Of a DNA stretch of 12,153 nucleotides, positions 1-12,153 are shown in pieces. A program made the position numbers and the translations under genes. The notes beneath the pieces were generated by a model. It made no database searches, had not been told where the DNA came from, and saw only the letters and a program-made list of their open reading frames with translations. Source of the stretch: a virus (taxonomy: Duplodnaviria > Heunggongvirae > Uroviricota > Caudoviricetes); IMG/VR virus record IMGVR_UViG_2693429719_000002, positions 1 to 12,153 of that record, one strand, 5' to 3'. How positions within the stretch are numbered: the stretch's first letter is position 1; each line of letters opens with the position of its first letter.

Positions 1-314
1 TGGGCGTAATTCCGGGAAAGCTGCTCATACGAGACACCCAGCCCGGCAGCGATATACCGCAGCAGTGACTGCTCAAACACGGAGTAGCCGTTATCCGTAT
101 CCTGAGCCGTCTGCAGGTTCAGTGAGTCACCCGGCATCAGGTGCGGTACTTTTGCGCCTCCCAGCCGGACCGGCGCTGCGGCGTAATACGCGGCAATTTC
201 ACCAATCCAGCCGGTCAGCCTTTCCCGCTGCTCCTGACTGTTCGCGCCCAGAATAAAATCCATCGCTGACTGCGTATCCAGCTCACTCTCAATGGTGGCG
301 GCATACATCGCCTT
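1..314 (-). CDS. B: Lambda-type portal protein, C-terminal portion (begins ...KAMYAATIESELDTQSAMDFILGAN...); separated from its N-terminal portion by the insert; runs off the window start
   Basis: Minus-strand translation from 314 downward is open to position 1 and reads as the direct continuation of the portal sequence that stops at the right junction (SAIVKA | MYAAT...). Matches my recollection of lambda gpB; not listed in the ORF track because it touches the window edge. Confidence 0.85.
302..314. other. attL junction: core ATCGCCTT (307..314) within CATACATCGCCTT
   Basis: Same 13-mer with one mismatch occurs at 11230..11242 (CATAAATCGCCTT). The identical 8 bp at 307..314 and 11235..11242 is the likely crossover core. 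Confidence 0.7.
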
Positions 315-388
315 TATGAAAAGACAGGAAAAAATAAAATTTAAAAACAGTACATTACGAATACTCAAACCTATCGTTTAAAGGAGTC

Positions 389-410
389 GCAATACACATT
401 GCAATACACG
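389..410 (+). repeat. Tandem GCAATACAC(A) repeats near attL, putative integrase arm-type binding sites
   Basis: gcaatacacattgcaatacacg at 389..410 is nearly identical to 11084..11105 near the other end, between int and attR. Confidence 0.5.
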
Positions 411-650
411 ATTATTTCTCAGATGAGCGGCAAGCATCCAACAACTATCCGTCATAAAGCTGGTGGATGATCACGGATAAACCGTTATGGGAATCCCCAT
501 ATCGGCATCATGCCCACCAGCGTGGCGCATTTTTTTAATTTCGCGGGTTTAAAAATTTGACGAGGCTGGCGGTCCCATAAGCAATGGGGTGTAGGGATTC
601 CGATCCCCCCGGGGTATTAAACACCCACCCTATTTAAATACCGTCTTTTT

Positions 651-700
651 TGTCACTGTGTGTCACTGGTTGTCACTCTCCGTCACAGTATGTCACCATA
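651..700 (+). repeat. Five phased 10-bp repeats (TGTCACnnnn x5)
   Basis: TGTCAC/CGTCAC at 651, 661, 671, 681 and 691, exactly 10 bp apart, just downstream of the last minus-strand gene. Confidence 0.6.
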
Positions 701-702
701 AG

Positions 703-987
703 TTAACGTCGTAACCGCTCCGGCTTCTTCCACTGGTACGTAATTTTTTCTTTCTCCTGGTACATCTGCACGCGGCGACGGTATGACAACATCTCCAGAA
801 CTCTGCTCCGTATGTCGCGCATATCCACGCCGTTAAGCTCAATACCGTCACGGCGCATCACCTCAGCCACCACACGCGCGTAATTTTCGGCTATCACGCT
901 ATCCGGCTGCGTGGCCTTCTGTTTGCCTGCTGCCTGGCTGGCTCCGGTAATGCAGCGAATCATTTTGAGCATTTCGGCTTCGGTCAT
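703..987 (-). CDS. Hypothetical protein (94 aa from ATG at 987; ORF-track version starts at TTG 1017)
   Basis: ORF in track; GGAGG lies 8 nt upstream of the ATG at 987. No family recognised. Confidence 0.5.
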   Translation of the reverse strand: MTEAEMLKMIRCITGASQAAGKQKATQPDSVIAENYARVVAEVMRRDGIELNGVDMRDIRSRVLEMLSYRRRVQMYQEKEKITYQWKKPERLRR

Positions 988-1024
988 TATCATGGCCTCC
1001 GTGGTGATGGAAAACAATGCCGTA

Positions 1025-1250
1025 ATTGTGGCGGGTCCTTCCTGGAAAATGAAACACCGGGGGTAGCCATACGCGCAATTCTTAACTGTTTATGAAAATT
1101 TTTCGGGAAAAGCCAGATCCGTTCTTCTTCTCTGTAACTCATTGTTTAATGGTAAAATCATCAAAAAAAGAAAGGATCTGACAGTGGTCATTTTGGGCCA
1201 AAAATGACGTTATCAGATCCTTTCTCAGTTTTGTTCAATAATTGCGCGGC
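1025..1250 (+). other. Second cos-like segment in plus orientation: lambda-cosB-like arm with three R-site-like elements carrying CAGATCC instead of CGTTTCC, and a diverged cosN-like segment
   Basis: Plus strand 1080..1250 aligns to the remembered lambda left arm (TTTATGAAAATTTT.CGG, CGTTCTTCTTC, AAAAGAAAGGA, GACAG.G, CCTTTCTC.GTTTTTGT). The position equivalent to cosN reads CGGGGGTAGCCATACGCGC, not GGGCGGCGACCT. Confidence 0.5.
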
Positions 1251-1252
1251 TG

Positions 1253-1780
1253 TCACTCACCTTTCTGTTGCCGTAATTTCTCCGGTACGTTTCCGGTTGT
1301 TTCCATCAGATAATCGGACATCATCAGCGGGATATTTTCATCAAGTTTTGCGCATGCGTTACAGGCTCTGATAACTTCTTTTTTCAGGCCATCCAGCATA
1401 GACGGCTTCATATCGGGAAACTTCCTTATCATGACAAGTGGCAGGCTATCCATGATTGAAGAAATCTGACTCGCCAATTTTGAAAGCACGTATATACAAA
1501 ACGCTGTATCAATAACGTCGCCGCGTTCACGCTCGTTTTTAAGCTCCTGCGCCTCTGCCTGTGCTGTCAGTAATCTGATCCTGACTCGTAGGAGTTCATC
1601 ATCATCAATCTCGCCCGTTTCGTTTGTAATCTGGCTGATTGCATTGTTAACCCGATTATCTATTACACTGGCGACATCATAAAACGCCTCGCGGCCCTTA
1701 CGCTCGACGGGAATCACTCCCCACTTATCGAACGCAGTGGCGCTTACACGGCAACTTTTTGCCATGTTTTTTTTGTTCAT
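1253..1780 (-). CDS. Terminase small subunit, lambda Nu1-like (conserved C-terminal part, divergent N-terminal winged-HTH)
   Basis: C-terminal two-thirds aligns to lambda Nu1 (LLTAQAEAQELKNERERGDVIDTAFCIYVLSKLASQISSIMDSLPL... vs [46 protein letters not shown]...). N-terminus is related but substituted in the putative recognition helix. Start set at the internal ATG (MNKKN, 1780) by alignment with Nu1 MEVNKK. Confidence 0.85.
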   Translation of the reverse strand: MNKKNMAKSCRVSATAFDKWGVIPVERKGREAFYDVASVIDNRVNNAISQITNETGEIDDDELLRVRIRLLTAQAEAQELKNERERGDVIDTAFCIYVLSKLASQISSIMDSLPLVMIRKFPDMKPSMLDGLKKEVIRACNACAKLDENIPLMMSDYLMETTGNVPEKLRQQKGE

Positions 1781-1894
1781 CAGGTGCAATTTCATTGATA
1801 CCACAACTTAATTACTGTTTCAGGTTGGTGTATTGATTGTACTTTTCTCTTATTATTCATGCAGATACAGCGAACAACAAAACCACCACCAGTC

Positions 1895-1990
1895 CCCTTA
1901 AAATGCTCATAAATAGCGAAAACCCGCGAGGTCGCCGCCCCGTAGCCTACCGGATCGCCGGAAAGGACCCGCCAGCCAGAACGGGCCCTA
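1895..1990 (-). other. Lambda-type cos site (cosQ-like sequence, cosN, first ~22 nt of the left arm) upstream of the Nu1-like gene
   Basis: Minus strand reads GGCGGGTCCTTTCCGGCGATCCGGTAGGCTACG GGGCGGCGACCT CGCGGGTTTTCGCTATTTATGA, near-identical to the remembered lambda right end, cosN and left end. Sequence then diverges from lambda cosB (1781..1894). Confidence 0.75.
1929..1940 (-). other. cosN cohesive-end sequence GGGCGGCGACCT (minus-strand reading)
   Basis: Plus strand shows AGGTCGCCGCCC, the exact reverse complement of the lambda 12-nt cohesive end. Confidence 0.75.
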
Positions 1991-1996
1991 ATTTCA

Positions 1997-2380
1997 TCAA
2001 CCAATCAACTTATAGCGACCATCCCGCGCATTGCGACGTACACGCTCAATCTTGAGGCATAGCGCCGCATCTGGCTTTTTTGGGACAGGTACGCGGCAAT
2101 ATTCAGAAGCTCGAGGAATATTGTTTATCCAGTCGATCACTTCACTTAAATACCAGGCCTTACGCCCTTCCGTAACCTGTACGCGTTCGGGGAACTCTCC
2201 GCGAGCCTCAAGGTTTAGCAATGTGCGACGGCTAAGGGTAGTAAGTTCCATCACCTGATTCATATCAACAAGGCGTTCACTTAAACGCATTTTGTCAGCA
2301 ATAGCCTTTAATTCCTCTACTGCTGGATCCGGATACATCATTTCGGCAATTGGCTTAAGGTCATTGTAATGATTCTGCAT
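1997..2380 (-). CDS. AlpA-family helix-turn-helix protein with a ~40-aa N-terminal extension (second AlpA-like gene of the island)
   Basis: Contains MNQVMELTTLSRRTLLNLEARGEFPERVQVTEGRKAWYLSEVIDWI, typical of AlpA/excisionase-type HTH. GGGGG RBS 5 nt upstream of ATG; starts 11 nt after the decoration gene stop. Confidence 0.65.
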   Translation of the reverse strand: MQNHYNDLKPIAEMMYPDPAVEELKAIADKMRLSERLVDMNQVMELTTLSRRTLLNLEARGEFPERVQVTEGRKAWYLSEVIDWINNIPRASEYCRVPVPKKPDAALCLKIERVRRNARDGRYKLIG

Positions 2381-2391
2381 TGTATCCCCCT

Positions 2392-2733
2392 TTACACACG
2401 AGCCAGCGGCTGAACAGAAATACCTGAGCCAACAAACGCGGCAACCTTTGCCGACAGTTCTTTTACAGACTCAGGCCAGTTCAGAGCATCAACATTTAAA
2501 ACACCTGTCTTATAAACCTGTGCCTGTGTTTTTTTCGCTGTGTCGATTTGTACAGCGGAAACATAAACCGCTTTACCTACGCTCGAACCATCCCATACCA
2601 CCAGTGCACCTGTTGCATCTTCCTGCATCAGTGGCGTAAATGCAGGAATTACCCCTTTATTAGCTGAAAATATCCCCAGCGTAGTCACCAGTGCTTCAGT
2701 GCCAGCCATGAGTTCAGTGTAATGAGTAGCCAT
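2392..2733 (-). CDS. Head decoration protein, lambda gpD-like
   Basis: Aligns to lambda gpD (TPLMQEDATGALVVWDGSS vs TPLMLDTSSRKLVAWDGTT; WPESVKELSAKVAAFVGSGISV vs [23 protein letters not shown]). Confidence 0.8.
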   Translation of the reverse strand: MATHYTELMAGTEALVTTLGIFSANKGVIPAFTPLMQEDATGALVVWDGSSVGKAVYVSAVQIDTAKKTQAQVYKTGVLNVDALNWPESVKELSAKVAAFVGSGISVQPLARV

Positions 2734-2742
2734 TGCTCCCCC

Positions 2743-3789
2743 TTAGCCAATGCGAACGGTAACAAAACGATTGATGCGGGCCGGTATTGGCTGTGGTGCT
2801 GAATGTGTCTGCACATATTCAATAGCCGGATCACCAGGCACAATATAGTTTTTCGGTGCAAGTTCGGCTTTAGTCAGCCCCATTCGGATTAGCTCCGGAT
2901 CCTGAATACCGCCATAGGCGACAATCCCCTGAAGAGCCGTATTGCCAAGCACCATCAAATCAGGATCAAGGAAATGTTTTTCTGTTCCGTCCTCGTCGGT
3001 ATAACGCCCGCTGTAAACAACAATCGCAACATCGCCCATATACCCTTTAAAACTCACCGAATCACCAAGGTCTTTAAGGGCCGTTTCCAGTTCGGAATTA
3101 GAACCACGACGGGTATCCAAAGCCTCTTTTATCGCTCTGAATGAACGGTATTTCTTCCATACATTACCACCCATAATGATGATATTAGTGACGCCCTCAC
3201 TAAATTCTGCGTAGCTCTCAATATCATCATTTGGATCAAAAGTTTCTTTATCCTTACCTGACCACTCAGTACCGCCAGACTGAGTGATGATATTTTGTGG
3301 TTTTATATTCCAGTCCAGCTCATAACGTTCAATACCATCGCCCTCAATGATATTTTTCCCCGTTGTGATTGCCTGAACAGCAAGCCATTCAATACGTGCA
3401 CGAATAGCTTTAGCCTGATTTACAATCGCCTGTTTAACTTTAATATTACGCGCCCCAAAAGCATTGTATTGCTCAGGTGACACACCAGCAGGGCGCACAG
3501 CTAACTTATTTGGATCAATGCTGCTTTTCGGCTTCATATAACCTGGACGAATTGTTTTTGATTCGTATCCCTCATCTCGTGAAACTTTACTGCCCACCAT
3601 AGGAGAGCAAAACGCCGCGATCGGGATATTTGGATCGTCGATCGTATCAAGAATAATGTCTCTCGATTCAAACATTACCGAGCGAGTGAAAAACAAACTG
3701 GTAAACAACGCATTTAATTTTTTTTGCACATCTTCAGCATTAGCCACCTGCACAAGCTGTGTAGGCGAATATAAATCAACCATACTCAT
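2743..3789 (-). CDS. Major capsid protein, lambda gpE family
   Basis: Strong similarity to lambda gpE (NIITQSGGTEWSGKDKETFDPNDDIESYA vs NITQSGGTEWSKRDKSTYDPTDDIEAYA; LDTRRGSNSELETALKDLG; GDVAIVVYSG; MVLGNT). Start trimmed to MSMVDLY (3789), AAGAGG RBS adjacent; the ATG at 3783 is an alternative. Confidence 0.9.
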   Translation of the reverse strand: MSMVDLYSPTQLVQVANAEDVQKKLNALFTSLFFTRSVMFESRDIILDTIDDPNIPIAAFCSPMVGSKVSRDEGYESKTIRPGYMKPKSSIDPNKLAVRPAGVSPEQYNAFGARNIKVKQAIVNQAKAIRARIEWLAVQAITTGKNIIEGDGIERYELDWNIKPQNIITQSGGTEWSGKDKETFDPNDDIESYAEFSEGVTNIIIMGGNVWKKYRSFRAIKEALDTRRGSNSELETALKDLGDSVSFKGYMGDVAIVVYSGRYTDEDGTEKHFLDPDLMVLGNTALQGIVAYGGIQDPELIRMGLTKAELAPKNYIVPGDPAIEYVQTHSAPQPIPARINRFVTVRIG

Positions 3790-3954
3790 CCTCTTTACAT
3801 TCATTACAAATAATTGTGAATATATTCTATTACCGATGTCTGCTATGCGAATACATGCAACCAAGTGCAATGTTGTATAAAATATGCCGTAACAACTTCA
3901 GTGCTGATAATTCGTGTTAATGTATTTACTTCCTTTGGTCGGGATTTATGTAGC

Positions 3955-3983
3955 ATGCCGGAAAATCTATTTTTTTCCGGCAT
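3955..3983 (+). terminator. Perfect 11-bp inverted repeat (ATGCCGGAAAA ... TTTTCCGGCAT) followed by CTTTTTGTTTG on the plus strand
   Basis: Read directly; lies in the SSB-capsid intergenic region. T-run follows only on the plus strand, antisense to the operon. Confidence 0.3.
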
Positions 3984-4000
3984 CTTTTTGTTTGCAGAAT

Positions 4001-4423
4001 TTAAAACGGTATATTATCGCCGTACGGATCATCATTCCCCGACTGTTGTTTTGCCCTGTTCAGTGCGTCAGTGGCCTGCCCCTGCTGGCCTTTTTTGCCG
4101 CCCGGTCGCGCCGTTCGCGCACTGATTACGCTGTCTGCGATAACCTGCCAGCCCCGCCGCGTTTCGCCGTTCTGGCCTGTCCACTGGCTTACCTGCATGT
4201 TACCCGCCACGCTCACCAGTTCGCCTTTGTGGTGTCTGGCCAGTGCGTCAGCCTGTCTGCCAAACGCCAGGACGGATAACCACATCGTCGCCGTTCCGTC
4301 ATCTGCCTGGCTGCACGGCAGGGGAACCGCCATACTCGCCATCGCCATTTGTGTCCCTTTGCTGGTGGTCTTTAACTGCGGGTCAGCCACCAGCCGCCCG
4401 TAAGCCGCTATCTGTGCTGTCAT
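4001..4423 (-). CDS. ssb: Single-stranded DNA-binding protein (SSB-like)
   Basis: OB-fold region similar to E. coli SSB (WLSVLAFGRQADALARH..GELVSVAGNMQVSQWTGQNGETR vs [43 protein letters not shown]). Acidic C-terminal tail ends ...DDPYGDNIPF, like DDDIPF. Confidence 0.8.
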   Translation of the reverse strand: MTAQIAAYGRLVADPQLKTTSKGTQMAMASMAVPLPCSQADDGTATMWLSVLAFGRQADALARHHKGELVSVAGNMQVSQWTGQNGETRRGWQVIADSVISARTARPGGKKGQQGQATDALNRAKQQSGNDDPYGDNIPF

Positions 4424-4665
4424 GCTGTCTGCTCTCCGGTTTTAACGTTGATGGTTGTCACCTGTTCCGCTTCGGCAATCTCCCGTTCTGTCAGCGTGGC
4501 AAAGTTTGCCGCCGTCGTGGCCATGAATGCGCTTATCAGTTCGGGATGTGCTTTCGCGTATCCCTCTCCCGCGTTGCGGTCGATGATTTTTATCGCCACC
4601 CTCAGCCAGTGTTCTGTCAAATCAAGGGCGTGAGATTGTGGTTTTTTTGCGTGCTTCGTTGTCAC
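4420..4665 (-). CDS. Hypothetical protein (81 aa, GTG start), translationally coupled to ssb
   Basis: GAGGT lies 7 nt upstream of the GTG; stop overlaps the ssb start (ATGA). No family recognised. Confidence 0.5.
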   Translation of the reverse strand: MTTKHAKKPQSHALDLTEHWLRVAIKIIDRNAGEGYAKAHPELISAFMATTAANFATLTEREIAEAEQVTTINVKTGEQTA

Positions 4666-4699
4666 AGGCTTTACCTCACAGCAATAAAATAAAATTTTT

Positions 4700-4945
4700 G
4701 CATTTTAACCCTTCACCTGTTCACCTTTTGCGATTTTCCCTTTTTATTCATGATGTTAAGGGGTGAACAGTTTCACAAAAACTATTCACCAACTGTTCAC
4801 CACTGTTCACCCTTAAAGCTCAATAAATAATCAAAAAGGTGAACAGTGAATAGTTTGGTGAACAGTTCACAAATAACTGTTCACCCTATAATGTACTGAT
4901 ATAAAAGACATTTATGACAGGGTGAACAGTGGTGAACAGTTATTC
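4700..4945. repeat. Iteron array (about 10 copies of GGTGAACAG / CTGTTCACC in both orientations) in an AT-rich region; putative origin of replication
   Basis: Copies at about 4716, 4762, 4782, 4792, 4803, 4838, 4857, 4878, 4921 and 4931, immediately downstream of the primase-helicase gene. Confidence 0.65.
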
Positions 4946-4952
4946 CATAAGT

Positions 4953-6758
4953 TTAATTTTTTCCATCGTCATTTGTGACCGATGTACATGATGGCATCCA
5001 GTCTTCTGAATCCTCTGTCAGGGTCACATTTGAACGCAAACCGTGCTTCGTTTTCCGTTTCATATACTCCCTGCCATATTCCGCCATTGCCCCCGGCATA
5101 TCTTTACCGAAGCGCGTCAGTGTTACAGGTTTACCGAATCCGTGTGCCCTCATATATGCCAGATAGGCGTGATAAAGATACCTGCGCGGACTGAACGGAA
5201 TAATTTCGGCATTACCCACTAACAGACCATCACACATTACCGACGACATGAGATAGCCGCAGAAGTCCACCAGCGAATCGCCCTCGCGTTTTATCACCAG
5301 AGCTTCTTCTGATTTCTGCTGCTCATACAGCAGGCGTTTAGCTTCGTCCTGGTCAGAAAAACGAGTAAGCAGGTGGCGAATCACAACCGCCAGCTCTCCT
5401 TCTATTTTTTCTGCCAGCATGGGGTCGCGTTCGTTTTCCGGTACAACCTCCGAAAAATTGAATATCACCCGACGACGTGAGATCCCCCCGCTGCGGTCAC
5501 TGAATGACATGGCGTTATTGTTCACCGCCAGCACGACCGCCTGAATGCGTGTTGAGTAGGGAGCTTTATGTTTCGGGTCAATTGCCACCTTGTCACCGCC
5601 TGTAATGGCCTTAATTCCTGCACCATCACCAGCGTAGCGGGTCATATCCGGCATGATAATCAGCGAAAAGCCAACCACTAACGCGCGTTCCCTGGCATCT
5701 TCCAGCGCCTTCATGCTTGCCGACACCGTGTTGGCCTTACCCGCCAGCATGGTGCAAATCTCCGCCATTACGCTTTTACCGCTTCCACCCGGCCCCGTTA
5801 CCTCAAGAAATAACTGCCAGTCGTATCGGTTCGCCAGCACCATGAATAACGCCGCCAGTACGCGATCCGCTTTACGGTCATTCTCTGCCACCGAACGGCG
5901 CAACCATTTCCAGAAATTCGGCGCATGCGTTGCCAGCGTTTCCCCCTCTGCTGGTGGGCTGAACGGTAATTCACTGGCAATTAACAGCCAGTCGTTTTTG
6001 TCATGCTCCCGAAAATCGCCTGTCCGGGTATCAAAAACACCGTTACTGAATCCAATCAGGTTACGGGCGGTATTTCCCATTACGGGCAAACTTAACTTCA
6101 TGGTATCGACCGCCGATTTGATGGCGTTCTGCGAATAACTGATCTCCGCATCAATAAAAATCTGCGCCATAGCCCGCTGTAACTCTTTATCCTGTACCGG
6201 CTCCCATACAACGCCGTTGTAGTGGTGAACTGTGTCAGAGTCCGCATTGATTGCCAGTTCACCGCCATAATGGGCCAGGAGAACTTCGCCGCGCTGGCTT
6301 GCTCCCATCTGGTTAAGCGCCAGTGGTGCGGCGCTGTCTTCTGTTTTTTTCTTAACAGGAAGCTGAATAACCAGACCATCAGAAAGATTCTGGCGCTCAC
6401 GCTCCAGATATTCGCGCCACTCCTCCCGCTTCTGGCTGTGCATTCCCTCAGGGTAATAATTCGCATCCCGTACACCTGCCGCCGCCAGCTTTTGCCCGAT
6501 GGCATTAATATTTGACGGCTTGATGTGGCCTGCCTTGTACAGCCGGACACAATAGCGACCATCGTCGATAATTTTCAGGTCTGCCAGTTCGTCAAGCTGG
6601 CTGTCTCCCAGCCATACAGGCGGAACATTGTCACCAGCAAGTCGCCCGTCCTGCTCCTGCCATTGTTTCGCGTGCGCCCAGGCATCACTACCCGCAAAAA
6701 TAATGACTTCGGTCATTTTGTCGTGCGGCTGTTTTTTTAAGTTCGGTGCCAGTTTCAT
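4953..6758 (-). CDS. Primase-helicase / replication initiator with P-loop NTPase domain
   Basis: 601-aa ORF with Walker A motif (EVTGPGGSGKSVMAEICTML) and an N-terminal primase-like region. Usual position for a satellite replication protein, followed by iterons. Confidence 0.85.
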   Translation of the reverse strand: MKLAPNLKKQPHDKMTEVIIFAGSDAWAHAKQWQEQDGRLAGDNVPPVWLGDSQLDELADLKIIDDGRYCVRLYKAGHIKPSNINAIGQKLAAAGVRDANYYPEGMHSQKREEWREYLERERQNLSDGLVIQLPVKKKTEDSAAPLALNQMGASQRGEVLLAHYGGELAINADSDTVHHYNGVVWEPVQDKELQRAMAQIFIDAEISYSQNAIKSAVDTMKLSLPVMGNTARNLIGFSNGVFDTRTGDFREHDKNDWLLIASELPFSPPAEGETLATHAPNFWKWLRRSVAENDRKADRVLAALFMVLANRYDWQLFLEVTGPGGSGKSVMAEICTMLAGKANTVSASMKALEDARERALVVGFSLIIMPDMTRYAGDGAGIKAITGGDKVAIDPKHKAPYSTRIQAVVLAVNNNAMSFSDRSGGISRRRVIFNFSEVVPENERDPMLAEKIEGELAVVIRHLLTRFSDQDEAKRLLYEQQKSEEALVIKREGDSLVDFCGYLMSSVMCDGLLVGNAEIIPFSPRRYLYHAYLAYMRAHGFGKPVTLTRFGKDMPGAMAEYGREYMKRKTKHGLRSNVTLTEDSEDWMPSCTSVTNDDGKN

Positions 6759-7069
6759 TTTGCCTTTCCCCGTTCACGAATAATTTCACGTACTGCCTTA
6801 ATGCGTTCCATACCTGTAACGCGCATGATTCTGTCGATGTCGCTTAAGTTCGCTGGTGGTGCTTTGCTTACCAGGGTGAATTCACTCTCAAAACGCATAT
6901 GTGACGACACGCAGGGATGCGCATAACCTTCGCGGATATAAGTCACGCGAAAATCGTCAACGGTTTTTATCGTTATTCGTCCGCCGTATTTATCTTTGAA
7001 AATATCGTCGGGGCGGATTTCAGGCCGAGCGGGGCCGCTGGCAGTAAAGCCAGAATTTTTCTTTTTCAT
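6755..7069 (-). CDS. Hypothetical protein (104 aa), translationally coupled to the primase-helicase gene
   Basis: ORF in track; stop overlaps the primase start (ATGA). No family recognised. Confidence 0.55.
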   Translation of the reverse strand: MKKKNSGFTASGPARPEIRPDDIFKDKYGGRITIKTVDDFRVTYIREGYAHPCVSSHMRFESEFTLVSKAPPANLSDIDRIMRVTGMERIKAVREIIRERGKAK

Positions 7070-7075
7070 GTTTTT

Positions 7076-7294
7076 TTACTCCAGAGGCAGCTTTTTAGCG
7101 GCGAGCTCAATATCAGATGTCAGAGAAACCTGTGTATTTGCCAGGTCTAACAACAAAGAAATAAGAATTTCCTCTCTGCTATCGGATTTATCGGTGCTAA
7201 GGCTGTTCATCCACATATTGACGACTTCCCTGATTTTTTTCGCGGAGTGCAGGGCTTCAAATGCCAGGTCTTCAATATCACGTTTATTTCGCAT
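7076..7294 (-). CDS. Hypothetical protein (72 aa from ATG at 7294)
   Basis: ORF in track; start moved to the internal ATG (MRNKRD) preceded by a GGGGG RBS. Confidence 0.45.
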   Translation of the reverse strand: MRNKRDIEDLAFEALHSAKKIREVVNMWMNSLSTDKSDSREEILISLLLDLANTQVSLTSDIELAAKKLPLE

Positions 7295-7529
7295 AATCGC
7301 CCCCACCATTTTCACAATCAACAATCAGGATGGCTTTAGCCTCATTCAGCGCCATATCAGCGGTAAGCTGCACATATGCCAGCGAATGCGGGATTATCGC
7401 CCCTGTATATTCCGGCTCTCTGGTAATGTGTTTTTCTGCGGTTGCTGCCGTGCATGAAATATCAATCAGCGCGTCCATCAGCGTTCTGATGGCTTCGCCT
7501 GCTGCGTCCGGCGTGTTTTTATTGCACAT
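7284..7529 (-). CDS. Hypothetical protein (81 aa)
   Basis: ORF in track; start overlaps the stop of the upstream 68-aa gene; GGGGG RBS upstream. Confidence 0.45.
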   Translation of the reverse strand: MCNKNTPDAAGEAIRTLMDALIDISCTAATAEKHITREPEYTGAIIPHSLAYVQLTADMALNEAKAILIVDCENGGGDYAK

Positions 7530-7725
7530 GGCGCACCCCCTGACGAATACGGGCGGCGAATACCATCACACAGCCATCAGGAGATTGCTGGCGTGCTTCC
7601 TGTTCGCTGGTGGCCTCGATGGTAATCACGCGCGGCTGTGCCGTGCTCAGGGCGATAAAACGCCAGATGTATTTATTCAGGTTGTACGAGTCCCGCCCTT
7701 GCGGGTGTGTGGTATGATTTAACAT
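7522..7725 (-). CDS. Hypothetical protein (68 aa), first gene of the leftward operon
   Basis: Corresponds to the last 68 codons of the 411-aa track ORF 7519..8754. ATG at 7725 has GAGG 5 nt upstream; the upstream part of that long ORF is judged spurious. Confidence 0.5.
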
Positions 7726-7823
7726 AGCTACCTCGATACTTCTGCTATCGTTGGTGGTTAGAAGCCCCGTTACTGCTCCTACAGTGCGGGGTTTCGTCGT
7801 TTCTGCACCTTGCATTAACAAGG

Positions 7824-7900
7824 TGTAAGTAACTTTATTTATAGGTGGCTTACATGTCAATGCTTTTATGTAAGACTTTTTATGTGTATATTGTCTTACA
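7824..7900. promoter_or_regulatory. Divergent promoter region with two ~31-bp operator-like elements (TGTAAG-N19-CTTACA)
   Basis: TGTAAG at 7824 and 7869, CTTACA at 7849 and 7895. A TTGACA -35 for the leftward operon (reverse complement of 7855..7860) abuts the first element. Confidence 0.5.
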
Positions 7901-7921
7901 CTTTCATTGAGAGGATTACAG

Positions 7922-8227
7922 ATGGCTACAGGTTCAAAAAACGCAAAATCACAATCACTGACAGCTCGGATCCCGCATGATGTTATTGAAGGCATGGAAT
8001 CCGTAAAACTGGACGGTGAAAGCAACGCCGGATTCATCGTAACCGCCATGCGCGGTGAAATCGCCCGCCGCCAGGCAGAAGGAAGCGGAGAAAACCTCCT
8101 GGTTTCTTCGCTCGATGCACTGGCGCAGGTGGAAAAAATCGGAGTCAAAGCAGCCGAGGAGATCGGGCAACTCATCACCGTCGCGCGTGAAGAACTCCAG
8201 CGTCGCAAGGCCAAAGAGCAGGAGTAA
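7922..8227 (+). CDS. Small regulatory protein, possibly ribbon-helix-helix type (101 aa)
   Basis: ATG at 7922 with GAGAGGA RBS 6 nt upstream. N-terminal SLTARIPHDVIEGMESV resembles an RHH strand-helix motif (weak, by eye). Sits next to the operator-like repeats. Confidence 0.5.
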   Translation: MATGSKNAKSQSLTARIPHDVIEGMESVKLDGESNAGFIVTAMRGEIARRQAEGSGENLLVSSLDALAQVEKIGVKAAEEIGQLITVAREELQRRKAKEQE

Positions 8228-8284
8228 CCATCACCAGCGCCGTGGTGCGACGAACTGTGGCGCACAGGGTTACAGGTATCTACG

Positions 8285-8482
8285 ATGACTGACAAATCAT
8301 TAAAGAAATTATCCTCATCCAGGAAAAAACAACGCAAAAACGCGGTAAGCGAACAAGAACAGGAAAGATTCGCGCCATGTGCGTTTGTCCTTGAGAAGTT
8401 CCTTAACGAGTACAGGCGCACAAAAATGGGATCGCATACCTGGAAAACATCGCAGCATGGCGATGCTAAAGAGCAGGAATAG
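8285..8482 (+). CDS. Hypothetical small basic protein (65 aa)
   Basis: ORF in track; weak RBS. Its last residues and stop context duplicate those of the upstream gene (AKEQE). Confidence 0.35.
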   Translation: MTDKSLKKLSSSRKKQRKNAVSEQEQERFAPCAFVLEKFLNEYRRTKMGSHTWKTSQHGDAKEQE

Positions 8483-8585
8483 CCCACCAGCAAGCCAGCA
8501 CACTGATCACATTGCCAACCGGATGTAATCACGGCATAGTAATCAGCGCTCATGCGTTGGGGATAACGCGCAATTAGTGTTGAAG

Positions 8586-8613
8586 GGCCACCGTAGCGGG
8601 TGGCCTTTGTTTT
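8586..8613 (+). terminator. Rho-independent terminator (GGCCACC-GTAGC-GGGTGGCC + TTTGTTTT)
   Basis: GC-rich hairpin followed by a T-run, about 100 bp downstream of the plus-strand genes. Confidence 0.6.
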
Positions 8614-8666
8614 GCCTGTTATCCGGCAATTGTGGCGCTTCGTCACACGGTTGATATAATTCCCCT

Positions 8667-8740
8667 GCACTGATCCATTTTTTTCGCAGCAGGTTAATTG
8701 TTCGCAAGGGCGCTCCGGCAACGGGGCGCTTTTTGTTTTT
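8667..8740 (+). ncRNA. Candidate small RNA (~75 nt) between an extended -10 promoter and a strong terminator
   Basis: TGATATAAT at 8652..8660; terminator at 8710..8740; no ORF in the interval. Confidence 0.3.
8710..8740 (+). terminator. Rho-independent terminator (8-bp stem with GCAA loop + TTTTTGTTTTT)
   Basis: GCGCTCCG-GCAA-CGGGGCGC followed by an 11-nt T-rich run. Confidence 0.65.
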
Positions 8741-8898
8741 ACCCACCAGCACAATAAAAATCTTCATTTTCCATTTTTGTAAAATTTCATGCTTTCCGGA
8801 TGGCTGGCCATATGTCATTTTTTAGCAGAAGATTTTGCCTTGCTGGTGGATAGCTTCCCGGTCAACACGATGTACCGTATAATCAGCACCGCGTGTGG

Positions 8899-9477
8899 TT
8901 ACTGAATACGCTCACCAAAGTAAAACTCAGGCTGATATTCACGTATCAGCCTTTTTTCTTCTTCCTCCAGCTCACGCTTTTTGCGCTTACATGCCTGTAG
9001 CTCCCTCCCCTTCTCGCTGGCACTTATCCGGTATTGCTCTTTGCGGCGGGAAAAATCCTGTAATGCGCCCCACGGGATACCATAAGCCCCCGTTTTTCTG
9101 ATACCCGGTATCACATTTCTGAATACCCAATTACTGAAACTATGAGCAAATGTGCCAGGCGTCATTGCTTTGCGGCTACGGGCTATTAGTTTGTAGAAAC
9201 CTGACTCAGAGATAATGCTCATATTCTGATTTCCTCCGGGGGTGTAAGTTAAATTTACTCCCTTTTCATCATCATCAAGCATCTGCAACGCCGTACGCGA
9301 ATTGGTCAGTTCCAGCGCAGCGCAGACATCCTTTGCAACAAACCACGGATCGCCGTTCAGATACACCACGCGAACGTTCACACCATCAAAGCGCAGAACG
9401 ACGAGATCACGAATATCGCAGAATTTTTTCACTGGACGAGCGTACCCCTTGCCCGTCACGGCAATATTTTTATTCAT
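8899..9477 (-). CDS. Bro-N domain protein (putative antirepressor-like)
   Basis: Bro-N signature read by eye: VRVVYLNGDPWFVAKDVCAALEL...SESGFYKLIARSRKAM...FSNWVFRNVIPGIRKTGAY. Confidence 0.8.
   Translation of the reverse strand: MNKNIAVTGKGYARPVKKFCDIRDLVVLRFDGVNVRVVYLNGDPWFVAKDVCAALELTNSRTALQMLDDDEKGVNLTYTPGGNQNMSIISESGFYKLIARSRKAMTPGTFAHSFSNWVFRNVIPGIRKTGAYGIPWGALQDFSRRKEQYRISASEKGRELQACKRKKRELEEEEKRLIREYQPEFYFGERIQ
8929..8958 (+). terminator. Plus-strand hairpin + T6 inside the 3' end of the Bro-N coding region (antisense)
   Basis: AGGCTGATA-TTCACG-TATCAGCCT followed by TTTTTT; a TATAAT at 8878..8883 lies upstream. Confidence 0.4.
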
Positions 9478-9494
9478 CGCGTTTTGACCTTATA

Positions 9495-9520
9495 GACAAA
9501 AAACCCCTCGTAATGAGGGG
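9495..9520 (-). terminator. Rho-independent terminator downstream of alpA (CCCCTC-ATTAC-GAGGGG + TTTTTTG on the minus strand)
   Basis: Hairpin and U-tract begin 14 nt after the alpA stop. Confidence 0.6.
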
Positions 9521-9533
9521 CGTTATTTACTGG

Positions 9534-9791
9534 TTATTGCTGTTTTGTTTTTCCAGGTTTCCATCCAGGATGCCACTCACCACGGATCCACGCCTGAACC
9601 TCTGAAAGTCGATAGCCTGCCGCACGTTCGCCGATCTTGATACGTCGCGGGAATTTACCTGCCTGCTCCATTTTCCAGCGTGTTGAGTTTGCCAGCGTGG
9701 TAAGTGCTATGCATTCTTTTTCACGAATGAACCGATCAATGTCCTTCATTGCGCGCAAATCGTTTTCATCCACAAGAGAATAAATTGTCAT
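9534..9791 (-). CDS. alpA: AlpA-family transcriptional regulator / excisionase-like protein
   Basis: 85-aa HTH protein directly downstream of int (start 1 nt after the int stop); GAGGTGG RBS. Confidence 0.8.
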   Translation of the reverse strand: MTIYSLVDENDLRAMKDIDRFIREKECIALTTLANSTRWKMEQAGKFPRRIKIGERAAGYRLSEVQAWIRGEWHPGWKPGKTKQQ

Positions 9792-9792
9792 A

Positions 9793-11034
9793 TCACACCA
9801 CCTCTTTATTAAGCTCGATAACGTTGTTGTTAAATCCTGCTATCGTATTAAGGTAATTAACCCACATATTAAGCACCTCAAGTTTTTTCTTTATATGCCT
9901 GCTTTTATTGTAAACACCAGCAACCCCTTTCACTTTATGACCCAAAAGAAGTTCGACAATATAAGGATCCGCCCCCATATCATTAAGCATTGTGGAAAAT
10001 GTGCGCCTGAAATCATGTATGCACCACAAGCCATTAGTATCATGACCAAGACGCCTGCATATTCTGTTTGCAGCCCCTGTTATTGTCGCCCTTTGCAAAG
10101 CACAACCGACAACATAACCGCGATTCTTTGTTTCTGCGTAAAGATTAACGATCCATTGTTTTATACCGTCAGGAACGGGCCTTACTATGGCCTCACCGTT
10201 TTTGCTGTGCTCTTTTGGGACTGTCCATACCCAGTTTTTTAAATCCCATTCTTCCCAGGTGGATAACCTCGCCTCCTGCTGTCGACAACCAAACGCCAGG
10301 CATATCACCATAATTCTTCGGTTATGTATCGATGAGAGAGTAAGCAAATTATTTCCATAAGCATACGACCATACATCAGCAGTTTCATTGATGCTAAGAA
10401 CGCGATCCCGTATACCGGACGAGCGGCCTACATAACTTACATTAATGTCTCCAAATGGATCGCAAGCGATATATTGCCTGACGCGACAAAACCGCAACGC
10501 CTGTTTAATATCAAGAAAAATTGCACCAGACATAACAGGCGCATTTTTTTTAATCCTGTCAAAGACGGTAAGCCATGTGTGTAATTTGCACTGTTCTATG
10601 GCCATATCGCCGATATAGGGGAATATATGCTTTTCAAATCGTTTTATTAAATATTCATGCTCTTTTCTGGCTGTTGTGGCGTGATTGTCGTACCAGTAAA
10701 ACAGCGCATCCCTTACGGTCACTGGTTGCATAGTTTTTTCGGCAGCAAGTTTTATTTGCCTGCGGGGGTCCAGATTTTCAGCCAGCCATTCACGGCACTG
10801 ATCACGCATGCGCCTGGCAGTTGCAAGAGACATGTCAGGATAGCGACCAAGTGTAAGCCATACCGGAGGGGATTTCCTGCCACCAAGACGATAGTAAAAA
10901 ACAAAGCTTATCCCCCCGACCATGCTTACACGCACAGACAGCCCGCGACCATCCGCTATTGTTTTTTGTTTGTCCTGTCGTTTTCCGGCAAGACTCTTTA
11001 ACAGTTTGTCGCTGAGTTTGTTTTCAATAGCCAT
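9793..11034 (-). CDS. int: Tyrosine-type site-specific integrase (P4-like)
   Basis: 413 aa; C-terminal catalytic motifs HDFRRTF ... LLGHKVKGVAGVYNKS (H-x-x-R ... Y); sits next to the element end. Confidence 0.95.
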   Translation of the reverse strand: MAIENKLSDKLLKSLAGKRQDKQKTIADGRGLSVRVSMVGGISFVFYYRLGGRKSPPVWLTLGRYPDMSLATARRMRDQCREWLAENLDPRRQIKLAAEKTMQPVTVRDALFYWYDNHATTARKEHEYLIKRFEKHIFPYIGDMAIEQCKLHTWLTVFDRIKKNAPVMSGAIFLDIKQALRFCRVRQYIACDPFGDINVSYVGRSSGIRDRVLSINETADVWSYAYGNNLLTLSSIHNRRIMVICLAFGCRQQEARLSTWEEWDLKNWVWTVPKEHSKNGEAIVRPVPDGIKQWIVNLYAETKNRGYVVGCALQRATITGAANRICRRLGHDTNGLWCIHDFRRTFSTMLNDMGADPYIVELLLGHKVKGVAGVYNKSRHIKKKLEVLNMWVNYLNTIAGFNNNVIELNKEVV

Positions 11035-11052
11035 TAACAGCCCTCAAGAGAT

Positions 11053-11106
11053 TTGCAATACACACCCATCCCGATCGCCAATTTGCAATACACATTGCAA
11101 TACACA
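11053..11106 (+). repeat. Three TTGCAATACACA repeats between int and attR, putative arm-type integrase sites / int promoter region
   Basis: Copies at 11053, 11083 and 11095; the last two form the same 22-mer found at 389..410. Confidence 0.5.
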
Positions 11107-11182
11107 AAACCGCGAAAAACCGGAATAGTGGTGAACGGTCATCAAAAGTATGGAAAACGACATTCCAGACGCAGCAAGGGTT

Positions 11183-12064
11183 TTAGTGGAGTTGGCGAAC
11201 GATGCGGACAACTACGGTGAGATGATAGACATAAATCGCCTTCACAATGGCGCTCTGCAGCTGCGTGTTCTGCAGCGTGTCGAGCATCTTCATCTGCTCC
11301 ATCACGCTGTAAAACACATTTGCACCGCGGGTCTGCCCGTCCTCCACGGGTTCAAAAACGTGAATGAACGAGGTGCGCCCGCCGGGTAACTCACGGGGCA
11401 TCCATGTCCATTTCTGCGGCATCCAGCCAGGATACCCGTCCTCGCTGACGTAATATCCCAGCGCCGCGCCGCTGTCATTAATCTGCACACCGGCACGGCA
11501 GTTCCGGCTGTCGCCGGTATTGTTCGGGTTGCTGATACGCTTCGGGCTGACCATCCGGAACTGTGTCCGGAACAGTCGCGAGGGACTGGTATCCCAGGTG
11601 GCCTGAACGAACAGTTCACCGTTAAAGGCGTGCATGGCCACACCTTCCCGAATCATCATGGTAAACGTGCGTTTTCGCTCAACGTCAATGCAGCAGCAGT
11701 CATCCTCGGCAAACTCTTTCCATGCCGCTTCAACCTCGCGGGAAAAGGCACGGGCTTCTTCCTCCCCGATGCCCAGATAGCGCCAGCTTGGGCGATGACT
11801 GAGCCGGAAAAAAGATCCGACGATATGATCCTGATGCAGCTGGATGGCGTTGGCGGCATAGCCGTTATTGCGTACCAGATCGTCTGCGCGGGCATTGCCA
11901 CGGGTAAAGTTGGGCAACAGGGCTGCATCCACACTTTCACCCGGTGGGTTCCACGCCCGCAACTGCCCTCCAAATCCGCTGCCACCGCCGTGATAACCGG
12001 CATATTCGCGCAGCGATGTCATGCCGTCCGGCCCCAGAAGGGTGGGAATGGTGGACGTTTTCAT
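11183..12064 (-). CDS. B: Lambda-type portal protein, N-terminal portion; ends in 17 element-derived codons after ...SAIVKA
   Basis: 293-aa ORF starting [34 protein letters not shown], near-identical to remembered lambda gpB. Homology stops at the core, then reads [17 protein letters not shown] and terminates. Confidence 0.9.
11230..11242. other. attR junction: core ATCGCCTT (11235..11242) within CATAAATCGCCTT
   Basis: Direct repeat of 302..314 with one mismatch at the fifth base. Confidence 0.7.
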
Positions 12065-12153
12065 ACATAAAATCCTGCAGGTCCCCTGCGTCGCTGTGTC
12101 ATGCCGGTCTGCACTTCCAGCTCCGCAATGTATTTTTTCAGGTCAGACACGGA
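12061..12153 (-). CDS. W: Head-tail joining protein W, C-terminal part (runs off the window end); stop overlaps the portal start
   Basis: Minus-strand translation ...[30 protein letters not shown] matches the remembered lambda gpW C-terminus. Has the lambda-like GTATGA overlap with the B start. Confidence 0.8.

Follow-up and report, generated by a model that had tools for sequence, protein, structure and literature searches.

A full-length Nu1-family small terminase gene beside a lambda-type cosN in a helper-embedded phage satellite

Introduction

Three routes for the packaging of phage satellites are established: copies of the helper cos site, the small terminase subunit (TerS) of the Staphylococcus aureus pathogenicity islands (SaPIs) together with Ppi (pac phages), and Rpp (cos phages) (bioRxiv 10.1101/2022.09.08.507074). 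Some Gram-negative phage-inducible chromosomal islands (PICIs) carry a terS homologue, but only islands without one have been characterised (Fillol-Salom et al. 2018), and no functional study of a Nu1-type TerS of a PICI was found in the searchable literature. Here, such a terS-like gene is analysed together with the cos sites on either side of it, named cos1 and cos2. It lies in a stretch of 12,153 nucleotides (IMG/VR record IMGVR_UViG_2693429719_000002, positions 1 to 12,153), which is called the window in the following and corresponds to contig CYGH01000022.1 (assembly GCA_001286465.1) in reverse orientation. On balance, we favour the reading that the gene encodes a satellite TerS which redirects the large terminase subunit (TerL; gpA in lambda) of the helper to cos1 and acts autonomously of helper TerS.

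Packaging of the island EcCICFT073 strictly requires helper TerS (PMC6092414, PMC6739421), which Murialdo and Feiss explain by the absence of the TerL-binding C-terminus from Rpp. Among phages, N15 has a simple cosB with one critical R3 site, GAGGTTGTTGTT, at bp 48-59, in which GTTGTT is most important, while I1, R2 and R1 are absent (PMC9026076, PMC4669245). In lambda, the spacing between R3 and cosN is critical (PMC9026076). Tommasini, Mageeney and Williams described helper-embedded satellites as one form of Gram-negative PICI and located them in late genes of lambda, B among them (bioRxiv 10.1101/2022.07.18.500453).

The small terminase and its DNA-binding domain

The product of the terS-like gene scored 87.1 bits against the Pfam model Phage_Nu1 (PF07471; cut-off 30), and its residues 2-175 matched PHROG 57 ('terminase small subunit') over profile positions 9-194 of 199 (E=1.9e-50). 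No NCBIfam model matched the protein, and a PDB sequence search with it returned neither a Nu1 DNA-binding domain (DBD) nor an Rpp, the RppC entries included. The ATG at 1795 was taken as the start codon, and the N-terminus M-x-x-H-L-[LM]-N-K-K is kept in homologues; an alternative GTG at 1804 would add three codons.

An alignment against the Nu1 proteins and cos sites of lambda, phage 21 and N15, which a first-pass annotation made from the sequence alone had proposed as a check, was run and gave an N15-type DBD next to cosQ and cosN of lambda. The protein aligns end to end with lambda, 21-type and N15 TerS and has the three-part architecture of a TerS (regions in Table 1). Identity to lambda Nu1 is 38% over residues 9-169, and the alignment extends to the last residues (IPLMMSDYLMET versus IPGLLSEYIEQS). 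By region, the identity amounts to 33% for the DBD, 50% for the central region and 39% for the C-terminal 33 residues, thus the most conserved part is the central region and not the extreme C-terminus. The first-pass annotation, which had described a conserved C-terminus and a substituted N-terminus, was right about the Nu1 family and the C-terminal homology, but these identities show its description to be overstated. The winged helix-turn-helix (wHTH) at the N-terminus is not a novel substitution: the first 55 residues are 55% identical to N15 gp1 and share both of its deletions with respect to lambda, and seven of the eight residues of the recognition helix agree (TAFDKWGV, QAFDKWGV in N15). 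Judged from these alignments, the wHTH is of the known N15 specificity type.

As is usual for a lambda-like TerS, the gene lies directly downstream of cosQ, cosN and cosB and is co-oriented with them. No large terminase gene overlaps or follows it. A gpA-like gene was found nowhere in the island, the sole TerL being that of the helper, which is encoded outside the island.

The ratio of non-synonymous to synonymous substitution rates (dN/dS) of 0.16-0.17 indicates purifying selection, and the mean column identity of 20 homologues is 71%. The family, which is widespread and routinely annotated 'terminase small subunit', comprises at least 226 protein clusters, some of them on hundreds of contigs, and its frame is intact across genera. 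Relatives of about 60% identity (P0105, three loci sampled) are present in Enterobacter and Citrobacter satellites embedded in the capsid gene E. Among phage records, no relative closer than N15 gp1 (47% identity) was found, which argues for a satellite lineage rather than a recent capture.

Inside the 3' end of the gene, at 1288-1304 (+), the sequence CGTTTCCGGTTGTTTCC contains two hexamers GTTTCC, 10 bp apart and similar to the lambda R core, on the strand of cos2. Both hexamers fall in the conserved codons for the tail residues ETTGNV, and the tail is kept among E. coli satellites; their presence is probably coincidental with coding.

cos1 and its cosB

The 64-nt lambda pattern comprising cosQ, cosN and 22 nt to the right was found in cos1 with 0 mismatches and in none of 200 shuffled sequences. 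The cosQ-like sequence and the exact lambda 12-mer reported by the first-pass annotation are hence retained. Compared to lambda, 61 of 66 positions are identical from -32 to +34, but only 11 of 26 further on. Between cosN and the gene, no match to the lambda R consensus was found at ≤ 2 mismatches, again as annotated, and no site for the integration host factor (IHF).

Downstream of cosN, the only block conserved between the E. coli satellites and those of Enterobacter and Citrobacter (TerS about 60% identical) is GGTGGTGGT(T/G)TTGTT at 1873-1890. Its location partly coincides with that of R3 in lambda (bp 50-65) and in N15 (bp 48-59) (PMC9026076, PMC4669245), and it carries a motif, TTGTTGTT, which is related to R3 of N15. 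Since only this block is conserved, at the place of R3, and R2, R1 and I1 are absent, cos1 may be regarded as having a simple cosB like that of N15 next to cosN of lambda. The first-pass annotation had called the cosB different from that of lambda; this stands as far as the lambda R sites are concerned, and the site resembles the simple cosB of N15. In detail, the block has (GGT)3 where N15 has (GTT)3, followed by TTGTTGTT, and the best match to R3 of N15 has three mismatches and is shifted by 8 bp. A remote inverted rR2 inside the terS gene, as in N15, was not found, the nearest candidate being a low-complexity A-run at the gene start.

The conserved block was also considered as a Chi site, given that the octamer GCTGGTGG is exact in some relatives. 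This was rejected: the window matches at 7 of 8 positions, and the octamer is not kept in the O157 or Enterobacter satellites. A promoter and terminator scan of 600-2500 gave no useful excess over shuffled sequences, and an Rfam scan of the window returned nothing.

Covariation of DNA-binding domain, cosB and helper

The PICI of strain STEC313 at clpS-cspD encodes a protein with the satellite-type C-terminal half, its tail ETTGNVPEKLRQQKGE being identical, fused to a DBD of phage-21 type. cos1 of this island has R3 and R1 of 21 type (CATGTCGG). In every island with the N15-type DBD, the GGTGGTGGT-TTGTT block is retained, regardless of whether cos2 is of Gifsy type, of another type or absent. 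Among the islands aligned, DBD type and cosB type thus co-vary.

In four complete E. coli genomes with the same satellite embedded in the lambda-like portal gene B, TerS and cosB of the helper were of lambda type (three genomes) or 21 type (one genome) and in no case like cosB of the satellite; the cosN was shared by all. In a further locus (L004; regions 6090-6160 and 19160-19260), the helper cosN is GGGCGGCAGGCG and cos1 of the sister island has GGGCGTCAGGCG, cos1 being otherwise identical to that of the window. The right half of cosN is altered here in both satellite and helper. The 12-mer in cos1 of another sister island (L005) is likewise GGGCGTCAGGCG, whereas a helper is visible in L004 only. 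These alignments indicate that the satellite cosN tracks the helper cosN.

Comparison with described packaging systems

EcCICFT073 belongs to the same island family and offers the same slot: capsid gene, decoration gene, cos1 with cosQ and cosN of lambda and without a phage cosB, specificity gene, inverted cos2 and the PHROG 1561 gene. The window gene is placed like an rpp gene of enterobacterial PICIs, within the late zone and with cos1 on one side and an inverted cos2 on the other. It is also alike rppA of EcCICFT073 in its N-terminal wHTH and in a single R3-equivalent at about bp 48-65. The cos2 sites differ, with 21-like R sites in EcCICFT073 and Gifsy-1-type sites in the window. The islands of CFT073 and O157:H7 share their insertion site at phoQ, and their identity is 96% until approximately 40 bp past cosN of cos1. 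Beyond this point, CFT073 has rppA and O157:H7 an N15-type terS disrupted by an insertion sequence (IS), which are wholly different, and similarity resumes from cosN of cos2. rppA and the N15-type terS are thus regarded as positional alternatives in a cassette bounded by inverted cos cores.

Despite the shared position, RppA and the window protein gave no BLASTP alignment and an hhalign probability of 0.1%, and RppA matched PHROG 57 in the wHTH only (residues 7-47). Rpp proteins of 139-154 aa have no central and C-terminal TerS regions (PMC9026076), whereas the window protein is a full-length TerS of 180 aa and retains the region homologous to the TerL-binding C-terminus. The wHTH is lambda- or 21-like in Rpp and of N15 type in the window protein, and the R3 block is ACCACCACC in the former and GGTGGTGGT-TTGTT in the latter. 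The window gene can therefore be described, from its sequence, as lying in the rppA position without being an Rpp.

The two blocks show a further relation. In terS-type islands, the block at the R3 position starts with GGTGGTGGT (bp 51-59; window 1873-1881), and in Rpp-type islands, the block is ACCACCACC (bp 55-63; cos1 of CFT073, locus L014), which is invariant in these islands according to Murialdo and Feiss. GGTGGTGGT is the exact reverse complement of ACCACCACC and has almost the same position, which may be coincidence or may reflect an inverted site.

The closest phage relative is gp1 (TerS) of N15, and the locus also resembles N15 in having one candidate site of R3 type, the core of which is similar to GTTGTT. 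In contrast to N15, no TerL gene follows the window gene, cosN is the 12-mer of lambda, the conserved block is at bp 51-68 instead of 48-59, and the C-terminus is a satellite-specific variant. With lambda, the locus shares the Pfam and PHROG family of Nu1, identical cosQ and cosN with their spacing, and a gene of the same orientation downstream of cos; it lacks the R sites, the IHF site and an adjacent gpA, and its DBD is only 33% identical. The SaPI system of TerS-S and Ppi follows the same concept, that is, a satellite small terminase acting with the helper large terminase on the satellite's own site (bioRxiv 10.1101/2022.09.08.507074). It differs in that packaging is of the headful (pac) type, TerS belongs to an unrelated family and interference is exerted by a separate protein, whereas the window has a cos system which needs a helper-compatible cosN and cosQ.

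The second, inverted cos site

Just past the 3' end of the gene, a second cos site in inverted orientation (cos2) was detected, which the first-pass annotation had missed together with the helper-embedded-satellite context. Its R sites have CAGATCCnTTCT in place of the lambda CGTTTCCnTTCT, with copies at 1114 (+), 1169 (-) and 1214 (+). These three matches compare with 0.14 expected, and three were reached in none of 200 shuffled sequences. A cohesive end near 1062 would put the start of R3 of cos2 at bp 53, as in lambda. The class of its cosN is also found in the cos of the SerU-LTIIb prophage and in cos1 of the clpS island of STEC313.

The same R sequences and layout are located upstream of the terS genes of Gifsy-1 and SerU-LTIIb, with the same CAGATCC in R3, R2 and R1 and the same order, orientation and spacing. 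In contrast to these prophages, cos2 of the window is not followed by a cognate terS, but points away from a satellite gene with a different DBD. The R-like sites at 1114-1225 were considered as the cognate target of the island protein and rejected: a 99.6%-identical cos2 accompanies the 21-type DBD in STEC313, the N15-type DBD occurs with a different cos2 (NDM6) or with none (L020-L023), and the R sites have the Gifsy-1 sequence. As cos2 does not follow the island DBD, it is interpreted as a separate cos of phage type, which helpers of Gifsy-1 specificity could use directly. The B-embedded satellites of the four complete genomes have no cos2 but keep cos1 and the gene; cos2 is dispensable for the module.

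Proposed mechanism and alternatives

We propose that the gene product is a satellite-borne full-length TerS of the lambda Nu1 family, whose N15-type wHTH would recognise the single R3-like element of its own cos1, at canonical distance from cosN and cosQ of helper type. The retained central and C-terminal regions would assemble with the TerL of the helper prophage, by which cos1 would be nicked and concatemers of the satellite would be packaged into heads made by the helper. Packaging would depend only on a compatible TerL and cosN and would be independent of the specificity of helper TerS and cosB, be it of lambda or 21 type. Direct TerL binding, DNA binding at 1873-1890, cutting at 1929-1940 and interference with helper packaging are each a prediction at this stage. 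The first-pass annotation had likewise proposed an island-specific small subunit and cosB redirecting helper gpA. This is still the best explanation given the covariation of DBD with cosB and of cosN with the helper, the purifying selection, and the occurrence of the satellite in helpers of other TerS specificity. The part concerning gpA is to be taken more cautiously, as binding is deduced from a C-terminal segment of 39% identity and the Rpp precedent acts through helper TerS.

Several observations weigh against an autonomous satellite TerS. TerL binding is not guaranteed, since the C-terminal 33 residues show the low identity given above and are followed by a satellite-specific tail. Mixed oligomers with helper TerS are possible, because the central domain is 50% identical to that of lambda Nu1. 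Compared to N15, the distance between the TTGTT core and cosN is greater by 6-9 bp. At the homologous locus of EcCICFT073, helper TerS is needed. The AlphaFold2 model, calculated with a 20-sequence alignment, is of low confidence (mean pLDDT 56.5, pTM 0.28), although its secondary structure (helix, helix, hairpin, long helix) fits a TerS.

The alternative which survives best, but which we regard as rather unlikely, is a mode of action as for Rpp. The protein would co-assemble with helper TerS via its central domain, its DBD or both, the satellite wHTH would read cos1, helper TerS would supply TerL, and helper packaging would be poisoned simultaneously. The gene is placed in the exact rppA slot between cos1 and the inverted cos2, Rpp sets a precedent at this locus (PMC6739421), and the 50% identity of the central domain would fit such co-assembly. 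Nevertheless, the protein keeps the whole TerS C-terminus, unlike Rpp, is not detectably similar to RppA by BLASTP or hhalign, and has S-C-R in place of I11-F12-G13 of the dimer interface of the lambda DBD.

It is improbable that the gene serves mainly interference. In this case, the protein would titrate or mis-target helper TerL or bind the helper cos, and the satellite itself would be packaged via cos2 or by helper TerS. N15 terminase can use the lambda cos, while lambda cannot use the N15 cos (PMC9026076, PMC4669245), for which reason an N15-type TerS might engage helper DNA, and PICIs commonly interfere with their helpers. The B-embedded satellites without cos2 in four complete genomes, which keep cos1 and the gene, argue against this, as does the conservation of the R3-like block of cos1 along with the DBD, implying that the satellite contains a target in cis. 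That the gene is the inert relic of a cos-terS module captured from a phage is very improbable, even though satellite late zones capture helper late genes (bioRxiv 10.1101/2022.07.18.500453) and the O157 copy is IS-disrupted, considering dN/dS of about 0.17, a frame intact in hundreds of genomes and across genera, a satellite-specific lineage, and the covariation of DBD and cosB.

Besides the satellite TerS acting on cos1, a wider model is put forward tentatively. Genes of terS and rpp type may be interchangeable alleles of a 'packaging-specificity cassette' between inverted cos cores, in which protein and cosB are swapped by recombination at the conserved cosQ-cosN. The full-length N15-type TerS would be an autonomous route needing helper TerL only, freed from helper TerS specificity, and likely the ancestor state of Rpp; cos2 would add a second helper range, that of Gifsy-1 specificity.

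What is added to earlier work is the N15-type specificity with a simple cosB, the covariation of DBD and cosB, the helper-matched cosN, and the allelic relation to rpp in an inverted-cos cassette. For enterobacterial satellites, the locus suggests a fourth combination, namely a complete TerS of cos type which has a simple cosB of its own and is found beside a helper-matched cosN. If the protein works without helper TerS, this would explain the presence of one satellite lineage in helpers of both lambda and 21 specificity, and would offer a testable answer to the origin of Rpp, a question left by Fillol-Salom et al. The locus also provides a natural experiment on the positioning of TerL on cosN by TerS where both the sequence and the spacing of the R3 element are different. 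In practical terms, the weight of the finding is moderate: the islands are common in E. coli, including Shiga toxin-producing and extraintestinal pathogenic strains, and are moved by lambdoid phages.

The satellite and its helper prophage

The features of the window are listed in Table 1. At either end, the window carries one half of a lambda-like portal gene B, which is interrupted at lambda 3658-3670. Window positions 12153-11230 are 98.3% identical to lambda 2747-3670, and positions 314-1 are 100% identical to lambda 3658-3971. For this mapping, the portal of the CFT073 prophage gave no nucleotide similarity, whereas lambda B succeeded as a reference. The satellite is co-oriented with the prophage and bounded by a 13-bp core repeat at 302-314 and 11230-11242 (CATACATCGCCTT and CATAAATCGCCTT), corresponding to lambda 3658-3670; from the sequence comparison, the 13 bp common to both junctions are the attachment core. 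With the whole element inserted in gene B, the helper portal gene is split until the satellite is excised. The composite of B-embedded satellite and helper was found in 61 complete E. coli genomes.

All satellite genes listed in the following are on the minus strand. A tyrosine integrase, AlpA, a Bro-N protein, a DUF4222 protein, a D5-type primase and a single-stranded DNA-binding protein (SSB) are followed by a major capsid protein (E-like), a decoration protein (D-like), another protein of the AlpA family, the cos/Nu1 region and the PHROG 1561 protein. The ordered zones (int-alpA, Bro, replication, late), the single direction and a length within 10-20 kb are those of a Gram-negative PICI or helper-embedded satellite.

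Table 1. Positions of the satellite, the packaging cassette and the neighbouring genes in the window
Feature	Position	Strand	Remarks
Whole satellite (helper-embedded, PICI-like)	315-11229	-	10.9 kb; owner of the terS/cos cassette
AlpA-family gene	1997-2380	-	Pfam Phage_AlpA, PHROG 2790; directly upstream of cos1, left neighbour of the packaging cassette
cosQ of cos1, GGGTCCT	1964-1970	-	starts 30 nt upstream of the cohesive-end sequence (lambda spacing); kept in all satellites aligned
cosN of cos1, GGGCGGCGACCT	1929-1940	-	exact lambda 12-nt cohesive end; lambda-identical core 1907-1972
Candidate R3-equivalent of cos1, GGTGGTGGTTTTGTTGTT	1873-1890	-	bp 51-68 from the left cohesive end
terS-like gene of the satellite	1253-1795	-	180 aa, ATG start; Pfam PF07471, PHROG 57
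Regions of the encoded protein			residues ~1-55, N15-type winged-HTH DBD; ~76-135, oligomerisation-like central region; ~136-168, homologue of the TerL-binding end; then a satellite-specific 12-aa tail
cos2 (overall)	1033-1228	+	inverted relative to cos1, just past the 3' end of the gene
cosQ-like sequence of cos2, GGGTCCT	1033-1039	+	from alignment to lambda cos
Divergent cosN-like core of cos2, GGGGGTAGCCATACGCGC	1059-1076	+	first base of the cohesive end placed at ~1062 by inference
Tripartite Gifsy-1-type cosB of cos2	1113-1228		R3 1113-1130 (+), R2 1167-1184 (inverted), R1 1213-1228 (+)
94-aa gene of unknown function	703-987	-	PHROG 1561; beyond cos2, right neighbour; homologue follows cos2 in EcCICFT073

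Further observations in the satellite

A 411-aa open reading frame at 7519-8754 (-) is probably no gene. In this interval, several small genes are placed instead both by gene calls for the identical DNA (L007) and in annotated relatives, in which they are Icd-like and YlcI/YnfO-like and lie on both strands. Another satellite (L006; 5982-7397 and 10353-10961) has an identical integrase and terS module, but an AAA_25 helicase replaces the D5 primase, which indicates mosaic exchange of satellite modules; it also has an additional Lambda_tail_I-like open reading frame between the AlpA-like gene and cos1.

The Chi octamer GCTGGTGG is strongly enriched in the island, with 11 sites between 459 and 8849 (six on the plus and five on the minus strand) compared to 0.40 expected from shuffled sequences, none of 200 of which reached 11. 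A related locus with the same satellite (L020) has 10 sites. No gene for a RecBCD inhibitor was recognised in this Chi-rich element.

Near both island ends, at 389-409 and 11085-11105, and also at 11051-11064, GCAATACACATTGCAATACAC was found, which doubles the motif GCAATACAC and is probably the 'doubled DNA sequence motif' of the attP region of Tommasini et al. Between the last satellite gene and the attachment junction, five copies of (T/C)GTCAC (+) with an exact period of 10 bp (651, 661, 671, 681 and 691) cover 651-696; this phased array may be bound by a regulatory protein or one of recombination directionality. Directly downstream of the primase gene, at 4759-4941, repeats of GGTGAACAGTT are contained in imperfect palindromic units of 29 nt at 4762 and 4857 and again at 4928. 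Replication origins of PICIs have been reported just downstream of the primase gene.

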